Below, in pieces: positions 1 through 47,789 of a DNA stretch of 64,000 nucleotides. The notes under the pieces were generated by a model, which was given only the letters and a program-made list of their open reading frames with translations, ran no database searches and was not told where the DNA came from. A program made the translations under genes and the position numbers. The stretch is from the NCBI RefSeq assembly GCF_057098645.1, contig NZ_CM169472.1; one strand, given 5' to 3'. The stretch's first letter is position 1. Every line of letters begins with the position of its first letter.

Positions 1-417
1 TTAATCAATAAACAAGGCGGGAGAAATGCCGAATCGCGTTGCCAATTTTTTAGCGTGTTCCAGCGTTAATTTCCTCTTCCCGCTCAAAACGCGTGACACC
101 ATAGATTTACTGCCAATTTCCGGCAGATCGGAAAGGGTTAAACCATATTGATCCATAAGGGTACGAATCACGGCTATACCGCCAGGCATGGCTTGAGCCA
201 TGGCATTAAATTCCGCAAATTCGGGCGCTGATTCTTCCCACGCGGTTATTTTGGCACACACCAGATCCAGTAAGGGGTTTTCAGGATCGTTGAGCAGCAA
301 ATGATCTACCAGTTCCAGCGCCTGGGTGTATTGTTCCTCGTTCTGAATACCCGCCAGAAAAGGTGCCACAGCAGTTAGCTTTTCTCCTGCTTGCAAGATG
401 TCGGCAATCGCAATCAT
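1..417 (-). CDS. higA: HigA antitoxin (XRE-type HTH), intact
   Basis: Complete 138-aa ORF recognised as E. coli HigA; its start overlaps the stop of the higB 3' fragment. Confidence 0.9.
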   Translation of the reverse strand: MIAIADILQAGEKLTAVAPFLAGIQNEEQYTQALELVDHLLLNDPENPLLDLVCAKITAWEESAPEFAEFNAMAQAMPGGIAVIRTLMDQYGLTLSDLPEIGSKSMVSRVLSGKRKLTLEHAKKLATRFGISPALFID

Positions 418-653
418 TTTTTCCCCTTAGTACGATGAACAGCGGTAAAGAAATCGTATTCTTTATGCGTCATAACTTCACGTATGTAGCACTTTTGCGA
501 TTCAAAAAAGACCATTGCTACAACACGTAATTCATTGCCCCCAACATTGAAAACATAATGCTTATCCAGATATTTGAAGTTATCCAGAGATGGGAATACT
601 GCTTTTAATGACTCAGGTTTTTTGAAATATCCCTTAGCAATCGTGTTCCCTAG
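414..653 (-). pseudogene. higB: higB toxin, 3' fragment (about codons 27-104), separated from its 5' end by IS2
   Basis: ORF 414..680 translates to ...LGNTIAKGYFKKPESLKAVFPSLDNFKYLDKHYVFNVGGNELRVVAMVFFESQKCYIREVMTHKEYDFFTAVHRTKGKK, matching the HigB C-terminus; its first 10 codons come from the IS2 end. Confidence 0.85.
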
Positions 654-664
654 TGGATTTGCCC

Positions 665-1570
665 CTATATTTCCAGACATCTGTTATCACTTAACCCATT
701 ACAAGCCCGCTGCCGCAGATATTCCCGTGGCGAGCGATAACCCAGCGCACTATGCGGATGCCATTCGTTATAATGCTCGAACGCCTCTGCAAGGTTCTTT
801 GCTGCCGTTAACCCGTCTGGTTTGGGCATGATACTGATGTAGTCACGCTTTATCGTTTTCACGAAGCTCTCTGCTATTCCGTTACTCTCCGGACTCCGCA
901 CCGCCGTGTTCTTCGGTTCAAGTCCCAACATCCGGGCGAACTGGCGTGTTTCATTAGCCCGGTAGCATGAACCATTATCCGTCAGCCACTCCACTGGAGA
1001 CGACGGAAGATCGTTGCCGAAGCGGCGTTCCACCGCTCCCAGCATGACGTCCTGTACTGTTTCACTGTTGAAGCCGCCGGTAGTCACCGCCCAGTGCAGT
1101 GCCTCACGATCACAGCAGTCCAGCGCGAACGTGACACGCAGTCTCTCTCCGTTATCACAGCAGAACTCGAACCCGTCAGAGCACCATCGCTGATTGCTTT
1201 CTTTCACGGCCACTCTGCCTGTATGTGCCCGTTTCGATGGCGGTACAGCAGGTTTTCGCTCAAGCAACAGCGCATTCTGGCGCATGATCCGGTAAACACG
1301 TTTGGCATTGATCGCAGGCATACCATCAAGTTCTGCCTGTCTGCGAAGCAGCGCCCATACCCGACGATAACCATACGTGGGCAGCTCTCCGATAACATGG
1401 TGTATACGGAGAAGCACATCCGTATCATCAGTGTGACGACTGCGGCGGCCATCCATCCAGTCATCGGTTCGTCTGAGAATGACGTGCAACTGCGCACGCG
1501 ACACCCGGAGACAACGGCTGACTAAGCTTACTCCCCATCCCCGGGCAATAAGGGCGCGTGCGCTATCCAC
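665..1570 (-). CDS. insD: IS2 transposase InsD (OrfB, DDE integrase fold)
   Basis: 301-aa ORF matching IS2 InsD as recalled. Confidence 0.95.
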
Positions 1571-1893
1571 TTTTTTGCCCGTCCATATTCAACGGCTTCT
1601 TTGAGGAGTTCATTTTCCATCGTTTTCTTGCCGAGCAGGCGCTGGAGTTCTTTAATCTGCTTCATGGCGGCAGCAAGTTCAGAGGCAGGAACAACCTGTT
1701 CTCCGGCGGCCACAGCAGTAAGACTTCCTTCCTGGTATTGCTTACGCCAGAGAAATAACTGGCTGGCTGCTACACCATGTTGCCGGGCAACGAGGGAGAC
1801 CGTCATCCCCGGTTCAAAGCTCTGCTGAACAATTGCGATCTTTTCCTGTGTGGTACGCCGTCTGCGTTTCTCCGGCCCTAAGACATCAATCAT
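1528..1893 (-). CDS. insC: IS2 InsC (OrfA, HTH); overlaps insD as expected for -1 frameshift production of an InsCD fusion
   Basis: ORF 1528..1938 contains the 121-aa InsC sequence starting [13 protein letters not shown]; start trimmed to that Met. Confidence 0.9.
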
Positions 1894-1984
1894 CTGTTCT
1901 CCAATGACTAGTCTAAAAACTAGTATTAAGACTATCACTTATTTAAGTGATACTGGTTGTCTGGAGATTCAGGGGGCCAGTCTA

Positions 1985-1989
1985 CCTAG
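1985..1989. repeat. 5-bp target site duplication CCTAG (right copy; left copy at 649..653)
   Basis: Identical pentamer directly abuts both IS2 ends. Confidence 0.9.
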
Positions 1990-2064
1990 AGCCACCAACT
2001 CCGTTTTATGTTGCGGGTATTTTTCCGCAGCATCTTTCAATGCTTTTTGAGTTATCAGGTGCAT
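1985..2064 (-). pseudogene. higB: higB toxin, 5' fragment (codons 1-26)
   Basis: Reverse complement reads ATG CAC CTG ATA ACT CAA AAA GCA TTG AAA GAT GCT GCG GAA AAA TAC CCG CAA CAT AAA ACG GAG TTG GTG GCT CTA GG = MHLITQKALKDAAEKYPQHKTELVAL, the HigB N-terminus. Confidence 0.85.
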
Positions 2065-2130
2065 TCTTCATCACGTCCGTTGACAAATTGGCAATATGAT
2101 AACATCCGTTGACAGATTGGCAACGGATGA
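2065..2130 (-). promoter_or_regulatory. higBA promoter/operator region with two related palindromes (ccgttgacaaattggcaa; ccgttgacagattggcaacgg)
   Basis: Inverted repeats directly upstream of the higB start codon; now separated from higA by IS2. Confidence 0.5.
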
Positions 2131-2246
2131 ATTTATCTGTGTGACGGAAGAATAAACGTAGAAAAACGCTAAACAAGAGAATGTAGAGGATGGTGACAGG
2201 GATTTTTTGTTTTATGGAAGCGCGATTCCAGAACTGGGCAGACATT

Positions 2247-2334
2247 GCCGGATGCGACGCTTGACGCGTCTTATCCGGCCTGGGAGTAACGTGCTGAACG
2301 TAGGCCGGATAAGGCGTTCACGCCGCATCCGGCA
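2247..2334. repeat. REP/BIME palindromic unit pair
   Basis: gccggatgcgacgc..gcgtcttatccggcc and taggccggataaggcg..gccgcatccggca motifs. Confidence 0.7.
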
Positions 2335-2348
2335 GGTTGTTCTCAACC

Positions 2349-3485
2349 TTATCGACGACGCCCGAGCTTCACCGCTTTCAGCACCACAAATTTATTATTC
2401 GTCGCAATAGTGGTGCAGTTGCCGAAAATCTTCTTCAGTTTATGGAAGTAATTCAGGTGACGGTTGGCAACGATATACAGTTCGCCGTTGATTTTCAGGC
2501 AGCGGCGGGCGTGGTGGAACATCTCCCAGGCGACGTTATCGGTCAGCGCATGTTGCTGATGAAACGGCGGGTTGCAGAGCATAGCATTAAAGCGGAAAGG
2601 CTCCACGCCGGAGAGCGCGTTGTTGATCATAAATTCGCAGCGATCCAACGCCTCTGGCATGTTGGTTTCAACGTTCAAACGGCTGGAAGCAACCGCCATC
2701 GGCGATTCATCGACAAACACCACTTTCGCCTGCGGGTTTTTATCAAGCAGCGTCAGACCAATAACGCCATTACCGCAACCGAGATCGACAATCTCCCCTT
2801 CGAGATTCTCTGGCAGATGCTGTATAAAGAAGCGCGCGCCGATATCAAGCCCGGTGCGGGAGAAGACATTCGCATGGTTGTGGATAGTCCAGTCAGTACC
2901 TTCCAGCTTCCAGCTAACGGTCTGCGGCGCATCGGCCAGCGGCGGTTCATTGAAAGTGCAATTAATCAGGCGCGCTTTTTTCCATGCCAGCGTGGTGGTG
3001 GTCGTACCGAGTACTTTTTCGAACAGTTCCAGCGTGGAAGTGTGAATGTCACGGGCTTTGGCACCGGCAATAATACGTGTATCCGACGTGACCACTTTGC
3101 GCAGCGCACGCAGTTGCTGTTCCAGCAATGCCAGTGTTTTCGGCACTTTGATCAGCACAACACCCGGCTGTTGCGGGTAGTCGGCGGTGCTGTCGAGAAA
3201 CTTCACGCTCGACTCATCAATCCCGTTGAGGCGTAAATTCTCGCGCGTCGCCAGTTCACTGATGTATGAGTCGCCAATGCTGTACGGCTTATGTTCCGCC
3301 AGCGCGCAGCTTAACGCACCAAAGGCATCATTCAGGATCAACACCGGGCCGCGGATTTCTGTGTCGTCCAACTGTTGCAGCAAATATTCATCCGCCGCTT
3401 CCCACGCCTGTAGCGGGTTAACGTCATCCGTCGCCGGAAAACGTTGTAGTGTCAGTGAACGGAAACCGTTGTCTAAGTGGCTCAT
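2349..3485 (-). CDS. rlmG: 23S rRNA (guanine1835-N2)-methyltransferase RlmG
   Basis: ORF 2349..3515; start trimmed to [11 protein letters not shown].. (378 aa); tandem methyltransferase domains. Confidence 0.9.
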
Positions 3486-4920: not shown

Positions 4921-5907
4921 ATGATACGTTTCGCTGTGATTGGTACGAACTGGATCACTCGCCAGTTCGTCGAGGCCGCCCATGAGAGCGGTAAATACAA
5001 GTTAACCGCCGTTTATTCCCGCAGCCTTGAACAGGCCCAGCATTTCGCCAATGATTTTTCTGTCGAGCATCTGTTTACGTCGCTGGAAGCGATGGCGGAA
5101 AGCGATGCCATTGACGCGGTGTATATTGCCAGCCCGAATGCCCTGCACTTTTCCCAGACACAACTTTTCTTTAGCCACAAAATTCATGTGATTTGCGAGA
5201 AACCACTGGCGTCGAATCTGGCGGAAGTGGATGCCGCCATTGCCTGTGCGCGGGAAAATCAGGTGGTGCTGTTTGAGGCATTTAAAACCGCCAGCCTGCC
5301 GAACTTTCATTTGTTGCGCCAGGCGCTGCCGAAAGTCGGCAAACTGCGGAAAGTTTTTTTCAACTATTGCCAGTATTCCTCGCGGTATCAACGTTACCTG
5401 GACGGTGAGAATCCCAACACCTTTAATCCGGCATTCTCTAACGGTTCAATTATGGATATCGGCTTTTACTGCCTGGCGTCGGCGGTGGCGTTATTTGGTG
5501 AGCCGAAAAGCGTGCAGGCAACCGCCAGTTTGCTGGCAAGCGGCGTAGATGCCCACGGCGTGGTGGTAATGAATTACGGTGATTTCAGCGTTACGTTGCA
5601 GCACTCAAAAGTCAGTGATTCTGTCCTGGCAAGCGAAATTCAGGGCGAAGCGGGATCGCTGGTGATTGAAAAACTGTCTGAATGCCAGAAAGTATGCTTT
5701 GTGCCGCGTGGCAGCCAGATGCAGGATCTCACCCAGCCGCAGCATATTAATACCATGCTCTACGAAGCAGAGCTGTTCGCTACCCTGGTGGATGAGCATC
5801 TGGTGGATCATCCGGGACTGGCGGTCAGTCGCATCACCGCCAAATTGCTGACAGAGATCCGCCGCCAGACAGGGGTGATTTTTCCGGCAGATAGCGTAAA
5901 ACAATAA
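4921..5907 (+). CDS. ygjR: YgjR, Gfo/Idh/MocA-family NAD(P)-dependent oxidoreductase
   Basis: ORF 4903..5907 trimmed to MIRFAVIGTNWI.. (328 aa); Rossmann GxGxxG-like N-terminus. Confidence 0.85.
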   Translation: MIRFAVIGTNWITRQFVEAAHESGKYKLTAVYSRSLEQAQHFANDFSVEHLFTSLEAMAESDAIDAVYIASPNALHFSQTQLFFSHKIHVICEKPLASNLAEVDAAIACARENQVVLFEAFKTASLPNFHLLRQALPKVGKLRKVFFNYCQYSSRYQRYLDGENPNTFNPAFSNGSIMDIGFYCLASAVALFGEPKSVQATASLLASGVDAHGVVVMNYGDFSVTLQHSKVSDSVLASEIQGEAGSLVIEKLSECQKVCFVPRGSQMQDLTQPQHINTMLYEAELFATLVDEHLVDHPGLAVSRITAKLLTEIRRQTGVIFPADSVKQ

Positions 5908-5934
5908 TTGTTACCGTAAAGCAGTGTAAAAGGC

Positions 5935-6190
5935 ATGTAACAGACCATTGACTGGGTGAATGGTCTGTCATACTTTGTTACCTGCAAAGGGGAGTAACTT
6001 CATTGCCGGTCGATCGTCATTACGATGTGTGAAAAATCACATCCGGTCACCGGGCAACCCGAAAGGAATACGCAGACGTATTCCTTTTTTGTTGTAAGTG
6101 AGACCTTGCCGGAAGGCGAGGTCTATGCATAAAAAGCAGCGGCTGACGTCTTCCGACGTTGGCCGTTTTTTTTATGTGTAAGGAACTTCT
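5935..6190 (+). promoter_or_regulatory. alx 5' leader (pH/Mn-responsive element, yybP-ykoY-type riboswitch; the SraF sRNA region in K-12)
   Basis: About 280 bp non-coding leader upstream of alx, ending in a hairpin plus T8 run and RBS aaggaa; identity from recollection of the K-12 locus. Confidence 0.6.
6138..6173 (+). terminator. Leader intrinsic terminator/attenuator hairpin followed by T8
   Basis: gcagcggctgacgtcttccgacgttggccg followed by tttttttt, 18 bp before the alx ATG. Confidence 0.55.
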
Positions 6191-7156
6191 ATGAATACTG
6201 TCGGCACGCCGTTGCTATGGGGCGGATTCGCTGTTGTTGTCGCCATTATGCTGGCTATCGACCTGTTGTTGCAGGGGCGTCGTGGGGCACATGCCATGAC
6301 CATGAAACAGGCTGCGGCCTGGTCGCTGGTCTGGGTGACGCTGTCGTTACTGTTTAACGCCGCTTTCTGGTGGTATCTGGTGCAAACCGAAGGTCGCGCC
6401 GTTGCCGATCCACAGGCACTGGCCTTTCTCACGGGTTATCTGATTGAGAAATCGCTGGCGGTCGATAACGTCTTTGTCTGGCTGATGTTGTTCAGCTATT
6501 TCTCCGTTCCGGCGGCATTACAACGTCGCGTGCTGGTGTATGGCGTGCTCGGGGCGATTGTTCTGCGTACCATCATGATCTTCACAGGCAGCTGGCTGAT
6601 TTCGCAGTTCGACTGGATCCTGTATATCTTCGGTGCCTTCCTGCTGTTTACCGGCGTGAAGATGGCGCTGGCCCATGAAGATGAATCAGGCATTGGCGAC
6701 AAGCCGCTGGTGCGCTGGCTACGCGGTCATTTGCGCATGACCGACACCATCGACAACGAGCATTTCTTTGTGCGTAAGAATGGATTGCTGTACGCCACAC
6801 CGCTGATGCTGGTACTGATTCTGGTGGAATTGAGCGACGTGATTTTTGCCGTGGATAGCATTCCGGCTATCTTCGCCGTGACCACTGACCCGTTCATTGT
6901 GCTGACCTCAAACCTGTTTGCGATCCTCGGCCTGCGTGCGATGTATTTCCTGCTGGCGGGCGTAGCAGAGCGTTTCTCGATGCTCAAATATGGCCTGGCG
7001 GTGATTCTGGTATTTATCGGTATCAAGATGCTGATTGTCGACTTCTACCATATTCCGATCGCCGTCTCGCTGGGCGTGGTGTTTGGCATCCTGGTGATGA
7101 CGTTTATTATCAACGCCTGGGTGAATTATCGGCATGATAAGCAGCGGGGAGAATGA
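6191..7156 (+). CDS. alx: Alx, TerC-family inner membrane protein (putative Mn exporter)
   Basis: 321-aa multi-TM ORF matching Alx/YgjT. Confidence 0.9.
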
Positions 7157-37528: not shown

Positions 37529-37582
37529 ATGAATAAAGCGCACTCAACAGTCTGAAACCCGCCGGAACGGTTTATTACGTAC

Positions 37583-37808
37583 ATCAGGTGAAACTGACCG
37601 ATAAGCCGCTTTCTTTTGGGTCTAGCGTCGTGGACAGTCATTCATCTTTCTGCCCCTCTAAAAGCAAAAACCCGCCGAAGCGGGTTTTTACGTAAATCAG
37701 GTGAAACTGACCGATAAGCCGCTTTCTTTTGGGTATAGTGTCGTGGACAGTCATTCATCTTTCTGCCCCTCCAAAAGCAAAAACCCGCCGAAGCGGGTTT
37801 TTACGTAA
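37583..37808 (-). repeat. Two tandem 113-bp repeats downstream of rnpB, each copying the rnpB 3' end plus a terminator hairpin
   Basis: Units 37583..37695 and 37696..37808 are near-identical and each contain aaaacccgccgaagcgggttttt; the rnpB 3' end (from 37809) is a third, partial copy. Confidence 0.85.
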
Positions 37809-37811
37809 ATC

Positions 37812-38189
<378 letters not shown>

Positions 38190-41168: not shown

Positions 41169-42503
41169 TTATTTCTGCAATTCCATACGTTTAATGTCGC
41201 CAACTACGAAGAGGTAGCAGACCATCGCCATCAGCGCTGAACATCCCACGAAAACCAGTGCTGCATTGAAGGAGTGCAGTTCACTTACCAGGTAGCCAAT
41301 CACCAGTGGAGTGACAATGGAGGCAACATTACCAAAGACGTTAAAGACGCCGCCGCAGAGGCCAACAATCTCTTTCGGCGCGGTGTCAGAAATTACCGGC
41401 CAGCCCAGCGCACCAAATCCTTTGCCAAAGAAAGCCAGCGCCATCAGCATGACCACCAGCGTGGTGTTGTTGGTGTAGTTACATAAGATGATGGTGGAAG
41501 CCAGCAACATTCCCAGCACAATCGGTAGCTTACGTGCCAGGGTCAGGGATAAACCGCGTTTGATCAGATAATCCGAGAAGACACCTCCCAGCACGCCGCC
41601 CGCAAAACCACACAGTGCCGGAATCGAGGCGACCAGACCCACTTTCAGAATCGACATGCCTTTTTCCTGCACCAGATAAATCGGGAACCAGGTGAGGAAG
41701 AACCAGGTGATGGTGTTGATAAAATATTGTCCGAAAAATACGCCAAGCATCATGCGGTTAGAGAGCAATTGCTTGATGTAATGCAGTTTGGGTCCGCTTG
41801 CTGCCGCACTGCCCGGCTTTTTGTGGTCCATATCGACCACCGCGCCATTTTCAGAGATAAACTTCAGCTCTTCCGCAGACATACGTGGGTGATCTGTCGG
41901 GTTATGAATCAACTTTATCCACAGCGCCGTCAGCACAAAACCAATCCCCCCCATAACGGTAAAGACGTGCTCCCAGCCCCAGGCGAAAGTCAGCCAGCCA
42001 AGCAGAGGCGAAAAGAGCGCCAGCGAGAAATATTGCGCCGAGTTAAAGATGGCGGAGGCAGTACCACGTTCTTTCGTCGGGAACCAGGCGGCGACAATAC
42101 GGGCGTTCGCCGGGAATGATGGCGCTTCCGAAAACCCCAGCATAAAGCGCATAAAGAACATGGAGATCCCTGCCCAGGCCAGCGGGAACATATCAACAAA
42201 GCCTTGCAGGAAGGTGAATAGCGACCAGAAAAAGAGGCTATAGGTGTAAACTTTTTTCGAGCCAAACTTATCAAGCAGCCAGCCGCCGGGGATTTGCATC
42301 AGCAAGTAGGCCCAGCCAAAAGCAGAAAAGATGTAACCCATCGAAACCGCACTTAACTGCAACTCTTTTGCCACTTCGGTACCAGCAATAGACAGCGTTG
42401 CACGATCGGCGTAGTTAACGGCGGTAACAATAAAAATAATCAGTAATATTAAATAGCGGGTATGCACGCCTTTCTTTTTTTCGTCAACGGTGTCCAGAAT
42501 CAT
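41169..42503 (-). CDS. garP: Galactarate/glucarate transporter GarP (MFS)
   Basis: 444-aa ORF. Confidence 0.9.
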   Translation of the reverse strand: MILDTVDEKKKGVHTRYLILLIIFIVTAVNYADRATLSIAGTEVAKELQLSAVSMGYIFSAFGWAYLLMQIPGGWLLDKFGSKKVYTYSLFFWSLFTFLQGFVDMFPLAWAGISMFFMRFMLGFSEAPSFPANARIVAAWFPTKERGTASAIFNSAQYFSLALFSPLLGWLTFAWGWEHVFTVMGGIGFVLTALWIKLIHNPTDHPRMSAEELKFISENGAVVDMDHKKPGSAAASGPKLHYIKQLLSNRMMLGVFFGQYFINTITWFFLTWFPIYLVQEKGMSILKVGLVASIPALCGFAGGVLGGVFSDYLIKRGLSLTLARKLPIVLGMLLASTIILCNYTNNTTLVVMLMALAFFGKGFGALGWPVISDTAPKEIVGLCGGVFNVFGNVASIVTPLVIGYLVSELHSFNAALVFVGCSALMAMVCYLFVVGDIKRMELQK

Positions 42504-44596: not shown

Positions 44597-44932
44597 ATGC
44601 CCGCTAATGCTCGCTCTCACGCTGTACTGACCACTGAATCAAAGGTCACGATACGCGGACAAACAACTATCCCCGCGCCAGTGCGTGAGGCCTTAAAACT
44701 GAAGCCAGGCCTGGACAACATTCATTACGAAATTCTGCCTGGTGGGCAAGTATTTATGTGCCGACTGGGAGATGAACAGGAGGATCATACTATGAATGCA
44801 TTTTTGCGTTTTCTGGATGCAGATATCCAGAACAACCCGCAAAAAACTCGTCCATTCGACATTCAACAAGGAAAGAAACTTGTCGCTGGCATGGACGTCA
44901 ACATTGATGATGAGATTGGCGACGACGAATAA
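44597..44932 (+). CDS. prlF: PrlF (SohA) antitoxin, AbrB/SpoVT-type
   Basis: ORF 44456..44932 trimmed to MPANARSHAVLTTESKVTIRGQTTIP.. (111 aa). Confidence 0.85.
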   Translation: MPANARSHAVLTTESKVTIRGQTTIPAPVREALKLKPGLDNIHYEILPGGQVFMCRLGDEQEDHTMNAFLRFLDADIQNNPQKTRPFDIQQGKKLVAGMDVNIDDEIGDDE

Positions 44933-45396
44933 TGGATTTTCCACAAAGGGTTAATAGTTGGGCGCTATATGCTCATCCCTGTTTTCAGGAAACCTACGAC
45001 GCTTTAGTTGCCGAAGTCGAGACATTAAAGGGAAAAGATCCTGAAAATTATTAGAGAAATGCCGCCACAAAGTTATTGGCAGCAGTTCACAAAGTGATTG
45101 AGGAGCATATCACGGTCAATCCATCATCGCCGGCATTCCGTCATGGCAAGTCGTTAGGCTCTGGGAAAAATAAAGACTGGTCACGGGTAAAATTTGGTGC
45201 TGGTCGTTATCGTCTCTTCTTTCGTTATAGTGAAAAAGAGAAAGTCATCATTCTGGGATGGATGAACGATGAAAACACTCTTCGCACCTACGGTAAAAAA
45301 ACAGATGCCTATACCGTATTCAGCAAAATGTTAAAAAGAGGACATCCTCCTGCCGACTGGGAAAGCCTCACCCAAGAGACAGAAGAAAACCATTGA
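44932..45396 (+). pseudogene. yhaV: yhaV toxin (ribosome-dependent RNase) with in-frame TAG at codon 41
   Basis: ATG at 44932 overlaps the prlF stop; MDFPQRVNSWALYAHPCFQETYDALVAEVETLKGKDPENY then TAG at 45052..45054; same frame continues as ..AAVHKVIEEHITVNPSSPAFRHGK.. to 45396. Confidence 0.8.
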
Positions 45397-46508: not shown

Positions 46509-47789
46509 GTGAAACATCTGACAGAAATGGTGAGACAGCACAAAGCGGGCAAAACAAATGGAATTTATGCCGTTTGTTCCGCACATCCGCTGGTGCTGGA
46601 GGCTGCAATCCGCTACGCCAGTGCAAACCAAACGCCGTTACTGATTGAAGCAACCTCCAATCAGGTAGACCAGTTCGGCGGTTATACCGGAATGACGCCC
46701 GCCGATTTTCGCGGCTTTGTTTGTCAGCTCGCCGACTCGTTGAATTTCCCGCAGGATGCGTTGATTCTGGGTGGTGACCATCTGGGGCCAAACCGCTGGC
46801 AAAACCTGCCGGCCGCTCAGGCAATGGCCAATGCCGATGATTTGATTAAAAGCTACGTTGCGGCAGGATTCAAAAAAATCCACCTTGATTGCAGCATGTC
46901 CTGTCAGGACGATCCGATTCCCTTAACTGATGACATCGTGGCTGAACGCGCCGCCCGTCTGGCGAAAGTGGCGGAAGAAACCTGTCTTGAACACTTTGCC
47001 GAAGCCGATCTGGAGTATGTCATTGGTACCGAAGTGCCGGTACCTGGCGGCGCGCATGAAACCTTAAGCGAGCTGGCGGTCACCACGCCGGATGCCGCCC
47101 GCGCCACGCTGGAAGCCCATCGTCACGCCTTTGAAAAGCAAGGTTTGAATGCCATCTGGCCACGCATCATTGCCCTGGTGGTTCAACCCGGCGTCGAATT
47201 CGATCACACCAACGTTATTGATTATCAGCCCGCCAAAGCGACCGCCTTAAGCCAGATGGTCGAAAACTACGAAACGCTGATTTTCGAAGCGCACTCTACC
47301 GATTATCAAACGCCGCAATCGCTGCGCCAGCTGGTGATTGACCACTTTGCCATTCTGAAAGTTGGCCCGGCGCTGACCTTCGCCCTGCGTGAAGCTCTGT
47401 TCTCTCTGGCAGCGATTGAAGAAGAACTGGTGCCAGCAAAAGCCTGTTCTGGTCTGCGTCAGGTGCTGGAAAACGTGATGCTCGACCGCCCGGAATACTG
47501 GCAAAGCCACTACCACGGTGACGGCAACGCGCGTCGTCTGGCGCGTGGTTATAGCTACTCGGATCGCGTGCGCTATTACTGGCCGGACAGCCAGATTGAT
47601 GACGCTTTCGCTCATCTGGTACGTAATCTGGCGGATTCACCAATTCCGCTGCCGCTGATCAGCCAGTATCTGCCGCTGCAGTACGTGAAAGTTCGCTCCG
47701 GCGAGCTGCAGCCAACGCCACGGGAACTCATTATCAACCATATTCAGGACATCCTGGCGCAGTACCACACAGCCTGTGAAGGCCAATAA
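46509..47789 (+). CDS. kbaZ: KbaZ, tagatose-1,6-bisphosphate aldolase non-catalytic subunit
   Basis: 426-aa ORF. Confidence 0.9.

Follow-up and report, generated by a model that had tools for sequence, protein, structure and literature searches.

HigB (ygjN) is a RelE-type, ribosome-dependent mRNA interferase. In the higBA operon of Escherichia coli K-12 (ygjNM; PDB 5IFG), the toxin gene comes first and overlaps the antitoxin gene higA by the 4 nt ATGA. Transcription is from a single mapped promoter, which is repressed by HigA and is Lon-dependent (PMC2814082). A "higA only" allele, in which a 325-bp deletion has removed the promoter and operators as well as functional HigB and has left HigA intact, is found in strains such as clone D i14 and the O103:H2 strain 129. 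The insertion sequence IS2 is bounded by imperfect ends, a 42-bp left repeat (IRL) that finishes in TA-3' and a 41-bp right repeat (IRR) that finishes in CA-3' (PMC3219604, PMC3299598), and an A6G motif is the -1 frameshift site of its orfA and orfB (PMC3219604). The IRR carries a -35 element that requires a -10 element at exactly 17 bp, and the PIRL promoter of IS2 is weak (PMC3219604, PMC3299598). Fusion promoters formed by IS2 are documented for ampC (Jaurin and Normark 1983) and acrEF (PMC3219604, PMC9330008).

Here we describe a higBA locus that has been divided by IS2. It lies in a stretch of 64,000 nucleotides of contig NZ_CM169472.1 (assembly GCF_057098645.1), which we refer to as the window. 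The locus resembles K-12 higBA in gene order, in the ATGA overlap, in its promoter and operator-like repeats, in a HigB that is 100% identical once rebuilt, and in a full-length match to HigA, and it differs in the division of the toxin gene at codon 26/27 and in the 1336 bp that separate higA from the promoter. The element resembles K-12 IS2A in its length of 1331 bp, its identical InsC and InsD, its A6G site, its 42- and 41-bp ends, and its 5-bp target duplication, and differs from it by 4 base changes and a new insertion site. As at ampC and acrEF, an IS2 right end with an outward -35 element abuts the downstream gene in the activating orientation; unlike those cases, there is no acceptable -10 element at 17 nt, and a fusion promoter is not predicted. 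The locus shares with the 325-bp-deletion allele an intact HigA and, in all likelihood, the lack of a functional HigB, but it retains the promoter and operators, displaced by a mobile element that is probably active. We conclude with high confidence that an intact IS2 was inserted by copy-out/paste-in transposition into chromosomal higB at codon 26/27, that this happened once, in the ancestor of a sub-clade of O145:H28-like strains, and that the insertion has been inherited since.

The element and its target site

The IS2 copy is complete (1331 bp, positions 654..1984, minus strand), with the IRL at the high-coordinate end and the IRR at the low-coordinate end, and has the length and ends of IS2, overlapping orfA and orfB with the A6G motif, and a 5-bp target duplication. 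The IRL (1943..1984, 42 bp) ends in TA-3' and the IRR (654..694, 41 bp) in CA-3', both on the minus strand; the tips of the element read CCAGTCTA-3' and CAAATCCA-3'. A gapped alignment of the two repeats has 31 identities, and the single extra base is position 9 of the IRL. On the same strand, insC (orfA; 1528..1893, 121 amino acids) and insD (orfB; 665..1570, 301 codons from a GTG) encode proteins identical in amino acid sequence to K-12 InsC1 and InsD1, and a -1 frameshift at the slippery site AAAAAAG (1570..1576) would yield the OrfAB transposase. Only 4 nucleotides differ from K-12 IS2A (IS positions 32, 274, 606, and 900), all of them silent or noncoding. A 100% identical copy is present in FDAARGOS_943, and the many other copies listed are at one mismatch. 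Judged from its intact sequence, this copy is probably capable of transposition, with minicircle formation.

Identical copies of CCTAG flank the element at 649..653 and 1985..1989, and the sixth base does not match; the extent of IS2 and the direct repeats given in the initial annotation are exact to the base. That annotation also proposed a comparison with close relatives, and E. coli O145:H28 RM12761 provides the exact uninterrupted site, in which CCTAG is single copy. When IS2 and one CCTAG are removed in silico, a 104-amino-acid HigB open reading frame is recovered that is 100% identical to chain A of PDB 5IFG, and the rebuilt site has 0 mismatches to RM12761 across higBA and 1 in 4664 bp. 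Over ~62 kb the rest of the window aligns colinearly to RM12761 and departs from it at 11 single bases, in one deletion of 48 bp, and in a few indels of 1 to 2 bases. A second toxin gene in the window, yhaV, has a nonsense codon and lies beside an intact prlF.

The antitoxin gene had been described as intact, and higA (1..417, minus strand) is indeed a full open reading frame of 138 amino acids with an HTH_3 domain. Its ATG (417..415) overlaps the higB stop codon, and it is preceded by the Shine-Dalgarno sequence AAGGGG (428..423). The gene is identical at the DNA level to RM12761 higA (WP_000560266.1), and its product matches chain B of 5IFG (Antitoxin HigA) over its full length. The ancestral locus is a gene for a RelE-fold toxin followed by an overlapping HTH antitoxin gene, and the called genes match Pfam HigB_toxin and HTH_3. 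Upstream of higB, the higBA promoter (PhigBA; 2096..2123, minus strand) consists of TTGCCA, 16 nt, and TATCAT, with a TG before the -10 element; 10 of its 12 hexamer positions agree with the consensus. Putative HigA binding sites are two operator-like direct repeats of 25 nt each (2070-2094 and 2099-2123). One inverted repeat, I2, lies over the promoter-distal copy (arms 2103-2114 and 2118-2129, 92% complementary), and another, I1, pairs both copies (arms 2076-2094 and 2109-2127, 79% complementary).

Carriers of the insertion

The insertion is absent from all 5,426 complete RefSeq E. coli genomes. In contrast, the exact 88-amino-acid chimeric open reading frame that spans the right junction (see below) is present on at least 24 independent contigs, all of O145:H28-like background. 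These come from 3 NCBI drafts and many assemblies of SRA runs made with different assemblers, and the right junction, where IS2 meets higB, is identical in all of them. The 31-amino-acid open reading frame that spans the left junction has no record in other assemblies, and that junction is confirmed in the window only. The RlmG allele of the window occurs in 465 index blocks, and all of the 24 longest contigs with this allele that were read have an intact higB, which indicates that the insertion marks a minority sub-clade.

Among carriers, the derived fadH single-nucleotide polymorphisms are nested (none; 1547; 1547 and 1882; plus private ones), as expected for a single event followed by clonal diversification. 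We judge recurrent insertion within the O145-like background to be unlikely on the strength of this nesting. In unrelated lineages too, including GCA_025431055.1, contigs break off within 1 to 2 nt of the CTAG at higB codons 26-27, which might, with low probability, make this CTAG a recurrent insertion hot spot; beyond the break, to the left of window position 649, there may be another insertion sequence, a mixed sample, or nothing. We found no description of the allele in the literature on higB with IS2 or on O145/H28 with IS2, and no mention in the literature of six of the sequencing-run accessions.

Selection and the retention of higA

Many E. coli strains lack higB but retain higA. The 325-bp deletion, which takes out the first 79 or so codons of higB together with its promoter and operators and leaves higA at full length, is carried by ~28% of complete genomes (about 1,400 to 1,550 of 5,426), and the HigA of clone D i14 is the same protein as that of the window. 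The locus is absent from ~19% of complete genomes, while ~52% keep full-length higBA. Other disruptions of higB are a different IS3-family element, inserted at another position in the gene in SCU-105 alone among the complete genomes, and a different chimera of 97 amino acids, P0014. The IS2 allele would have reached by another route the "higA only" state that many E. coli genomes share. In all likelihood the allele has little or no effect on fitness, as there would be no toxin left to neutralize.

A different reading of the same pattern is that selection favors loss of the toxin: HigB would be costly and HigA useful alone, for instance in regulation or in defense against plasmids or phages that bring in higBA, and the IS2 allele would have risen through selection. 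The large number of deletion genomes with full-length higA, the disruptions represented by SCU-105 and P0014, and the nonsense codon in yhaV next to an intact prlF are what such selection would lead one to expect. However, full-length higBA persists in about half of the genomes, and a large insertion splits the locus in only 4 of 4376 records. Moreover, loss of the antitoxin first is lethal, so that neutral decay also proceeds toxin first and predicts the same pattern. We know of no function for an orphan HigA in E. coli. For these reasons we consider the adaptive explanation unlikely and favor neutral loss of higB.

Transcription into and out of IS2

The initial annotation pointed out that insC and insD are oriented in the same direction as higA, and both higB fragments are as well, all on the minus strand, so that PhigBA reads into IS2 in the sense direction. 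We scanned this strand for promoters under strict and relaxed settings; the position of the IRR -35 element was taken from the 17-bp rule (PMC3219604, PMC3299598). PhigBA is the only strong match, and neither scan detects an outward fusion promoter at the IS2 end, which would call for a -10-like hexamer in the flank, at a spacing of 16 to 18 nt for IS fusion promoters in general and of 17 nt for IS2. The IRR -35 element TGGAAA (675..670) is followed, after a 17-nt spacer, by TAGGGA (652..647), where the T conserved at position 6 of -10 elements is missing. Within IS2 there are only weak matches of 8 of 12 bases (e.g., 856..828), and between PhigBA and higA the minus strand contains neither an intrinsic terminator nor an outward promoter of consensus type.

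Since there is no usable outward promoter at the IS2 end, expression of higA would need read-through across the element. Situated 1.34 kb from the only mapped promoter, higA would receive only transcripts that start at PhigBA or at the weak PIRL and traverse the element, and expression of higA by read-out from IS2, which had been suggested at the outset, is only a possibility on the basis of these scans. Read-through would have to cross the largely untranslated insD region and is probably prone to polarity: ribosomes reach ~860 nt of insD only by way of a rare frameshift, and Rho-dependent polarity is to be expected there. A search of the literature on IS2 orientation and Rho polarity yielded nothing useful. 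Because HigA represses PhigBA, a shortfall of HigA would partly correct itself.

These observations bear on the proposal that the insertion has rewired regulation, such that either the IS2 right end or its read-out drives higA or PhigBA drives the transposase genes in the sense direction, in which case transposition would be coupled to Lon-mediated decay of HigA. The uniform orientation of all the genes, the intact promoter and operator repeats just upstream of the IRL, the failure to find an intrinsic terminator, and an outward -35 element of the type that acts at ampC and acrEF (PMC3219604, PMC9330008) are all consistent with rewiring. What makes it improbable, in our judgment, is that the hexamer at the mandatory 17 nt lacks the T at position 6, that no other good promoter emerges from either scan, and that the insD stretch should be prone to polarity. 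A more elaborate version, in which HigA represses the transcription that impinges on the IS2 transposase genes and is itself supplied by read-through, would form a stress feedback loop where Lon-dependent decay of the antitoxin under stress increases transposase expression; we regard this as more doubtful still. Our preferred explanation remains a simple loss of higB, with higA dependent on read-through.

The higB remnants

The promoter-proximal fragment of higB (1985..2064, minus strand; ATG at 2064..2062) was initially taken to be 26 codons long. This is right as far as complete codons are concerned, but the fragment has 2 additional nucleotides, and the first base of IS2 restores Gly27. The resulting 31-amino-acid open reading frame (1969..2064, minus strand) runs on into IS2 and encodes 27 native HigB residues followed by RLAP and a stop codon. 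The promoter-distal fragment (414..653, minus strand) extends from the duplicated Leu26/Gly27 to Lys104 and the stop codon; it is not fused to higA, as had been supposed, but retains the native 4-nt ATGA overlap. As initially reported, an ATG at 680..678 in the end of IS2 is in frame with this fragment and gives an 88-amino-acid chimera (414..680, minus strand) composed of 9 residues from the IS2 right end (MSGNIGANP) and HigB residues 26-104. No Shine-Dalgarno sequence precedes this ATG. As 1336 bp now interrupt higB after codon 26, the locus has no intact expressible toxin gene, and since the promoter-proximal piece yields only a 31-residue peptide and the chimera lacks a ribosome-binding site, the strain is probably null for HigB.

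The chimera still matches Pfam HigB_toxin, and NCBI nr holds the identical protein (e.g., MDT8478214.1) under the automatic name "HigB family toxin." According to an AlphaFold model built from a single sequence, with moderate confidence (pLDDT 77), the missing part of the protein comprises helix 1 and the initial nine residues of helix 2, and the four beta strands and the C-terminal helix are all kept. The literature on the 5IFG, 6KML, and 5YCL structures yielded nothing usable on the role of the N terminus. From this model and what is generally known of RelE-fold toxins, the chimera is predicted to be inactive. If it were instead a working or partly working toxin that requires control by HigA, the two genes would go on acting as a toxin-antitoxin module; the retained strands and C-terminal helix, the Pfam match, and the native overlap with higA would fit. 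Given that helix 1 and part of helix 2 are missing, that the start codon has no Shine-Dalgarno sequence, and that the open reading frame is located downstream of 1.3 kb of IS2, we find this very improbable.

Finally, although IS2 is multicopy in E. coli and a frequent source of misjoins, the chance that an assembly artefact has misplaced a copy in higB is negligible, because neither the 5-bp duplication nor the empty site shows any imperfection and at least 24 independent contigs from different assemblers share the same right junction, which strengthens the original view that this is a genuine transposition.

Implications

The locus is a case of routine gene decay, with neither the element nor the gene new, and it leaves the current understanding of IS2 and higBA unchallenged. 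In practice it is of modest use: a sub-lineage of O145:H28-like E. coli, which belong to the Shiga toxin group, can be recognized cleanly by PCR from the junction (GGGGCAAATCCACTAGGGAACACG), and the automatic name given to the chimera overstates the toxin-antitoxin content of the genomes that carry it. The insertion is a further independent instance of the loss of HigB and retention of HigA across E. coli, a pattern that might help specialists in toxin-antitoxin evolution to ask whether orphan HigA has any role by itself.

Structure of the insertion and the split higB gene

The IS2 element occupies positions 654..1984 (1,331 bp) and is abutted on both sides by CCTAG (649-653 and 1985-1989). 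Both points had been made in the initial annotation, and our reading of the sequence and a script agree with them; a script check also found that the duplication cannot be extended to six bases. Deletion of the element and one CCTAG in silico restores a 104-codon minus-strand ORF, the product of which is 100% identical (104/104 residues) to E. coli K-12 HigB (PDB 5IFG, chain A). The antitoxin gene higA was said to be intact, and indeed the 138-aa ORF at 1..417 (-) is a full-length match to HigA (5IFG, chain B). By its sequence, the locus appears to be a K-12-type higBA module; a working toxin, one feature of such a module, was looked for and not found.

A mechanical ORF list contains the predicted 88-aa chimera at 414..680 (-), which begins at an ATG within IS2, and a 31-aa ORF at 1969..2064 (-), which uses the native higB ATG as its start. 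The 5' piece of higB lies where it had been placed, but its length is 26 codons plus two bases rather than exactly 26 codons. The first IS2 base restores Gly27, which is followed by RLAP and a stop.

Compared with IS2A of K-12 MG1655, the element has 4 base differences (IS positions 32, 274, 606, and 900), none of which alters the amino acid sequence of InsC (121 aa) or InsD (301 codons). The A6G slippery site is present (1576..1570, -). Alignment of the ends gives a 42-bp left end (IRL) terminating in TA-3' and a 41-bp right end (IRR) terminating in CA-3', and IRL has an additional base at its position 9; the same end structure has been described previously (PMC3219604, PMC3299598). Every IS2-defining sequence feature was looked for and found. 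Among the matches listed, the closest copy is that of FDAARGOS_943 (100% identical), while the many others have one mismatch. No other IS2 copy is present in the 64-kb window. Because InsC and InsD, the frameshift site, and the ends match those of known IS2, we conclude that this is an ordinary IS2 and, judging from these sequences, presumably an active one.

Loss of higB across E. coli

The rebuilt 804-bp higBA-plus-promoter sequence, used as a query against 5,426 complete genomes, was matched in 4,376 of them, with ≥80% of the query in one place in 2,824. A large leftover class matches only bases 1-491. O103:H2 strain 129 and "clone D i14" exemplify it: a 325-bp deletion has eliminated the promoter together with its operator repeats, as well as higB codons 1 to ~79, and higA is full-length (deletion loci L014 2914..3188 and L015 2914..3188, which lack the equivalent of window 491..653 plus 1990..2151). 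The same HigA accession is found in clone D i14 and in the O145:H28 genome RM12761. We estimate from an evenly spaced listing that the deletion class comprises ~1,400 to 1,550 of the 5,426 genomes. In ~1,050 genomes higBA is absent, yet the adjoining rlmG-ygjR region is present in 5,415.

In the same complete-genome search, an insertion of more than ~900 bp divides higBA between two places in four records only. IS2 at this higB site occurs in 0 of 5,426 complete RefSeq genomes; in the search for the IS2 allele, the one genome with a large insertion across the query was SCU-105, where an IS3-family element other than IS2 interrupts higB elsewhere, after 216 nt (L001 3001..4787). Numerous further shortened HigB entries fall in the 90% cluster of the chimera, and one, P0014, is a 97-aa chimera on three contigs in which MMSLWDALRMNMMISYQELVRTFP is followed by HigB from Lys32.

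The window has a second type II pair (44597..45396), in which the prlF antitoxin gene (44597..44932, +) is intact and the adjoining yhaV toxin gene (44932..45396, +) is dead, with a stop at codon 41 (ENY*RNA). The same stop is annotated in RM12761, so it predates the IS2 event. Selection for loss of the toxin would fit both the repeated independent losses of higB and the yhaV nonsense mutation beside an intact prlF. However, since decay of the toxin first is also the neutral expectation, we regard selection as an unlikely explanation.

Expression of the interrupted module

A higBA promoter-like site (2123..2096, -; TTGCCA, 16 nt, TATCAT; TG-extended, 10/12) and two operator-like repeats of 25 nt, whose cores are palindromic, are kept upstream of IS2. 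A cluster of REP-type palindromes (2196..2377) lies between rlmG and this promoter, with naRNA4 Rfam matches on both strands that are below threshold (best 38 bits versus a gathering score of 59.5). In K-12, transcription of higBA is reported to start from one promoter only, which precedes higB; HigA represses this promoter, its induction depends on Lon, and HigB is a translation-dependent mRNA interferase (PMC2814082).

The insertion leaves higA its Shine-Dalgarno sequence AAGGGG (428..423, -) and pushes it 1,336 bp further from its sole mapped promoter. IS2 is known to form fusion promoters at ampC and acrEF (PMC9330008), and the outward -35 of IRR works at the minicircle junction only with a 17-bp spacer (PMC3219604, PMC3299598). 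By this rule the -35 would be TGGAAA (675..670), and the hexamer 17 nt downstream, TAGGGA (652..647), lacks the conserved final T. With no acceptable -10 at that distance and no promoter detected at the IS2 right end by a strict or a relaxed scan, a fusion promoter for higA is not predicted.

We found no intrinsic terminator on the minus strand from the native promoter (PhigBA) to higA, so read-through into higA from PhigBA or from PIRL, a weak promoter of IS2, is possible on sequence grounds. Some 860 nt of insD, translated only after a rare frameshift, should favor Rho-dependent polarity. Because HigA represses PhigBA, a drop in HigA would partly self-correct. The geometry would also permit a rewired regulation, with higA driven from IS2 or the IS2 transposase driven from PhigBA, but we think this improbable.

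With respect to the toxin, the promoter-proximal product would be a 31-residue peptide, and no Shine-Dalgarno sequence was seen on reading upstream of the chimera ATG. In a single-sequence AlphaFold model of HigB (mean pLDDT 77), helices 6-15, 17-32, and 38-44 are followed by four strands at 49-87 and a helix at 88-101; by this model the chimera lacks all of helix 1 and nine residues at the start of helix 2. Based on the short peptide, the missing Shine-Dalgarno sequence, and the missing helical residues, the locus is most likely null for the toxin, and it is very improbable that the chimera is still active.

Lineage and distribution of the insertion

The window flanks are nearly identical to complete O145:H28 genomes, e.g., RM12761 and RM13516. 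The RM12761 annotation has both higB and higA intact, and the rebuilt window has 0 mismatches to it across higBA and 1 in 4,664 bp. Over the whole 64 kb, the two differ by IS2, a 48-bp yhaH deletion, a few 1- to 2-base indels, and 11 substitutions, and by nothing else.

An exact-sequence look-up places the 88-aa chimera on at least 24 contigs, from three NCBI drafts and many public sequencing-run assemblies. In the contigs shown, the junction is identical in all, as are the 680 to 843 bases common with the window. The genuine transposition proposed in the initial annotation is thus borne out by the RM12761 empty site and these identical junctions; a misassembled IS2 is ruled out for practical purposes, since the empty site is perfect and the same junction recurs on at least 24 contigs, and we give it next to no credence.

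In fadH of the chimera contigs, derived substitutions form a ladder: none, 1547 alone, 1547 with 1882, and finally private changes. A single insertion with later clonal diversification would be expected to leave such a pattern. The window RlmG allele is found in 465 index blocks, and higB is uninterrupted in 24 of the 24 longest contigs read, so the carriers form a sub-clade that is in the minority within the O145:H28-like lineage.

All five substitutions in ~4.8 kb of the junction contigs (L003-L012) are in fadH, which lies beyond window position 1, outside the window, and all are protein-changing; a sixth change, P9L, is further into the gene. The changes named are M192I, I81L, P9L, K497N, and G383E, and in L012 fadH is broken. 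Since the empty-site O145:H28-like sequences RM12761 and L032 also have one private substitution each in this stretch, the rate of fadH evolution in this lineage may be unusually high.

Several other features of the window were recorded. The yhaH deletion (20259..20269) is in frame in a gene for a DUF805 membrane protein (20063..20380, +), falls between direct repeats of 11 nt (CGTGGTGGGCA, two copies), and removes 16 residues (VQFRRLHDTDRSAWWA). The garP (41169..42503, -) and kbaZ (46509..47789, +) ORFs are intact; the RM12761 annotation lists both as pseudogenes, garP for a 1-base frameshift and kbaZ for a G-to-T nonsense mutation. Either the strains truly differ here or the older assembly is in error. 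A 113-bp tandem unit (2.5 copies, 95% matches, 37555..37834), each copy of which opens with the hairpin-plus-T-run motif AAACCCGCCGAAGCGGGTTTTT, adjoins rnpB (RNase P RNA; 37812..38188, -). Upstream of alx (~6191..7156, +), positions 5700..6300 gave no Rfam match to the yybP-ykoY (manganese) riboswitch at E values up to 10; the K-12 alx leader is usually assigned to that family.

Contig ends at the CTAG in higB

A 77-aa partial HigB beginning at Asn28 occurs in 71 index blocks. In the O145-like assemblies whose accession prefixes are typical of NCBI pathogen-surveillance submissions, the contig begins at window 649, a point four bases into the duplication rather than at the edge of IS2. Contigs of plainly distinct E. 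coli lineages and of metagenomes (L020, L021, and L025-L027) end at 649 or 648, at most 1 to 2 nt from the same CTAG, and L021 is 100% identical to non-O145 complete genomes with intact higB (wastewater, human, bird, and salad isolates). These ends may reflect assembler behavior (trimming), mixed samples, or independent insertions there. For mixed samples, a common synonymous CTA/CTG polymorphism at Leu26 (window 651) could split the assembly graph, but its position is off by one base from that expected.

Standing of the allele

We found no description of this IS2-higB allele in the literature. It is in public assemblies, and the chimera has an NCBI nr entry that bears the automatic name "type II toxin-antitoxin system HigB family toxin." Since element and gene are both known, the sequence is public, and the outcome is common in the species, we count the allele as already known in kind. 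Genomes without HigB but with HigA intact are already common in E. coli, so IS2 simply adds one more route to this state.
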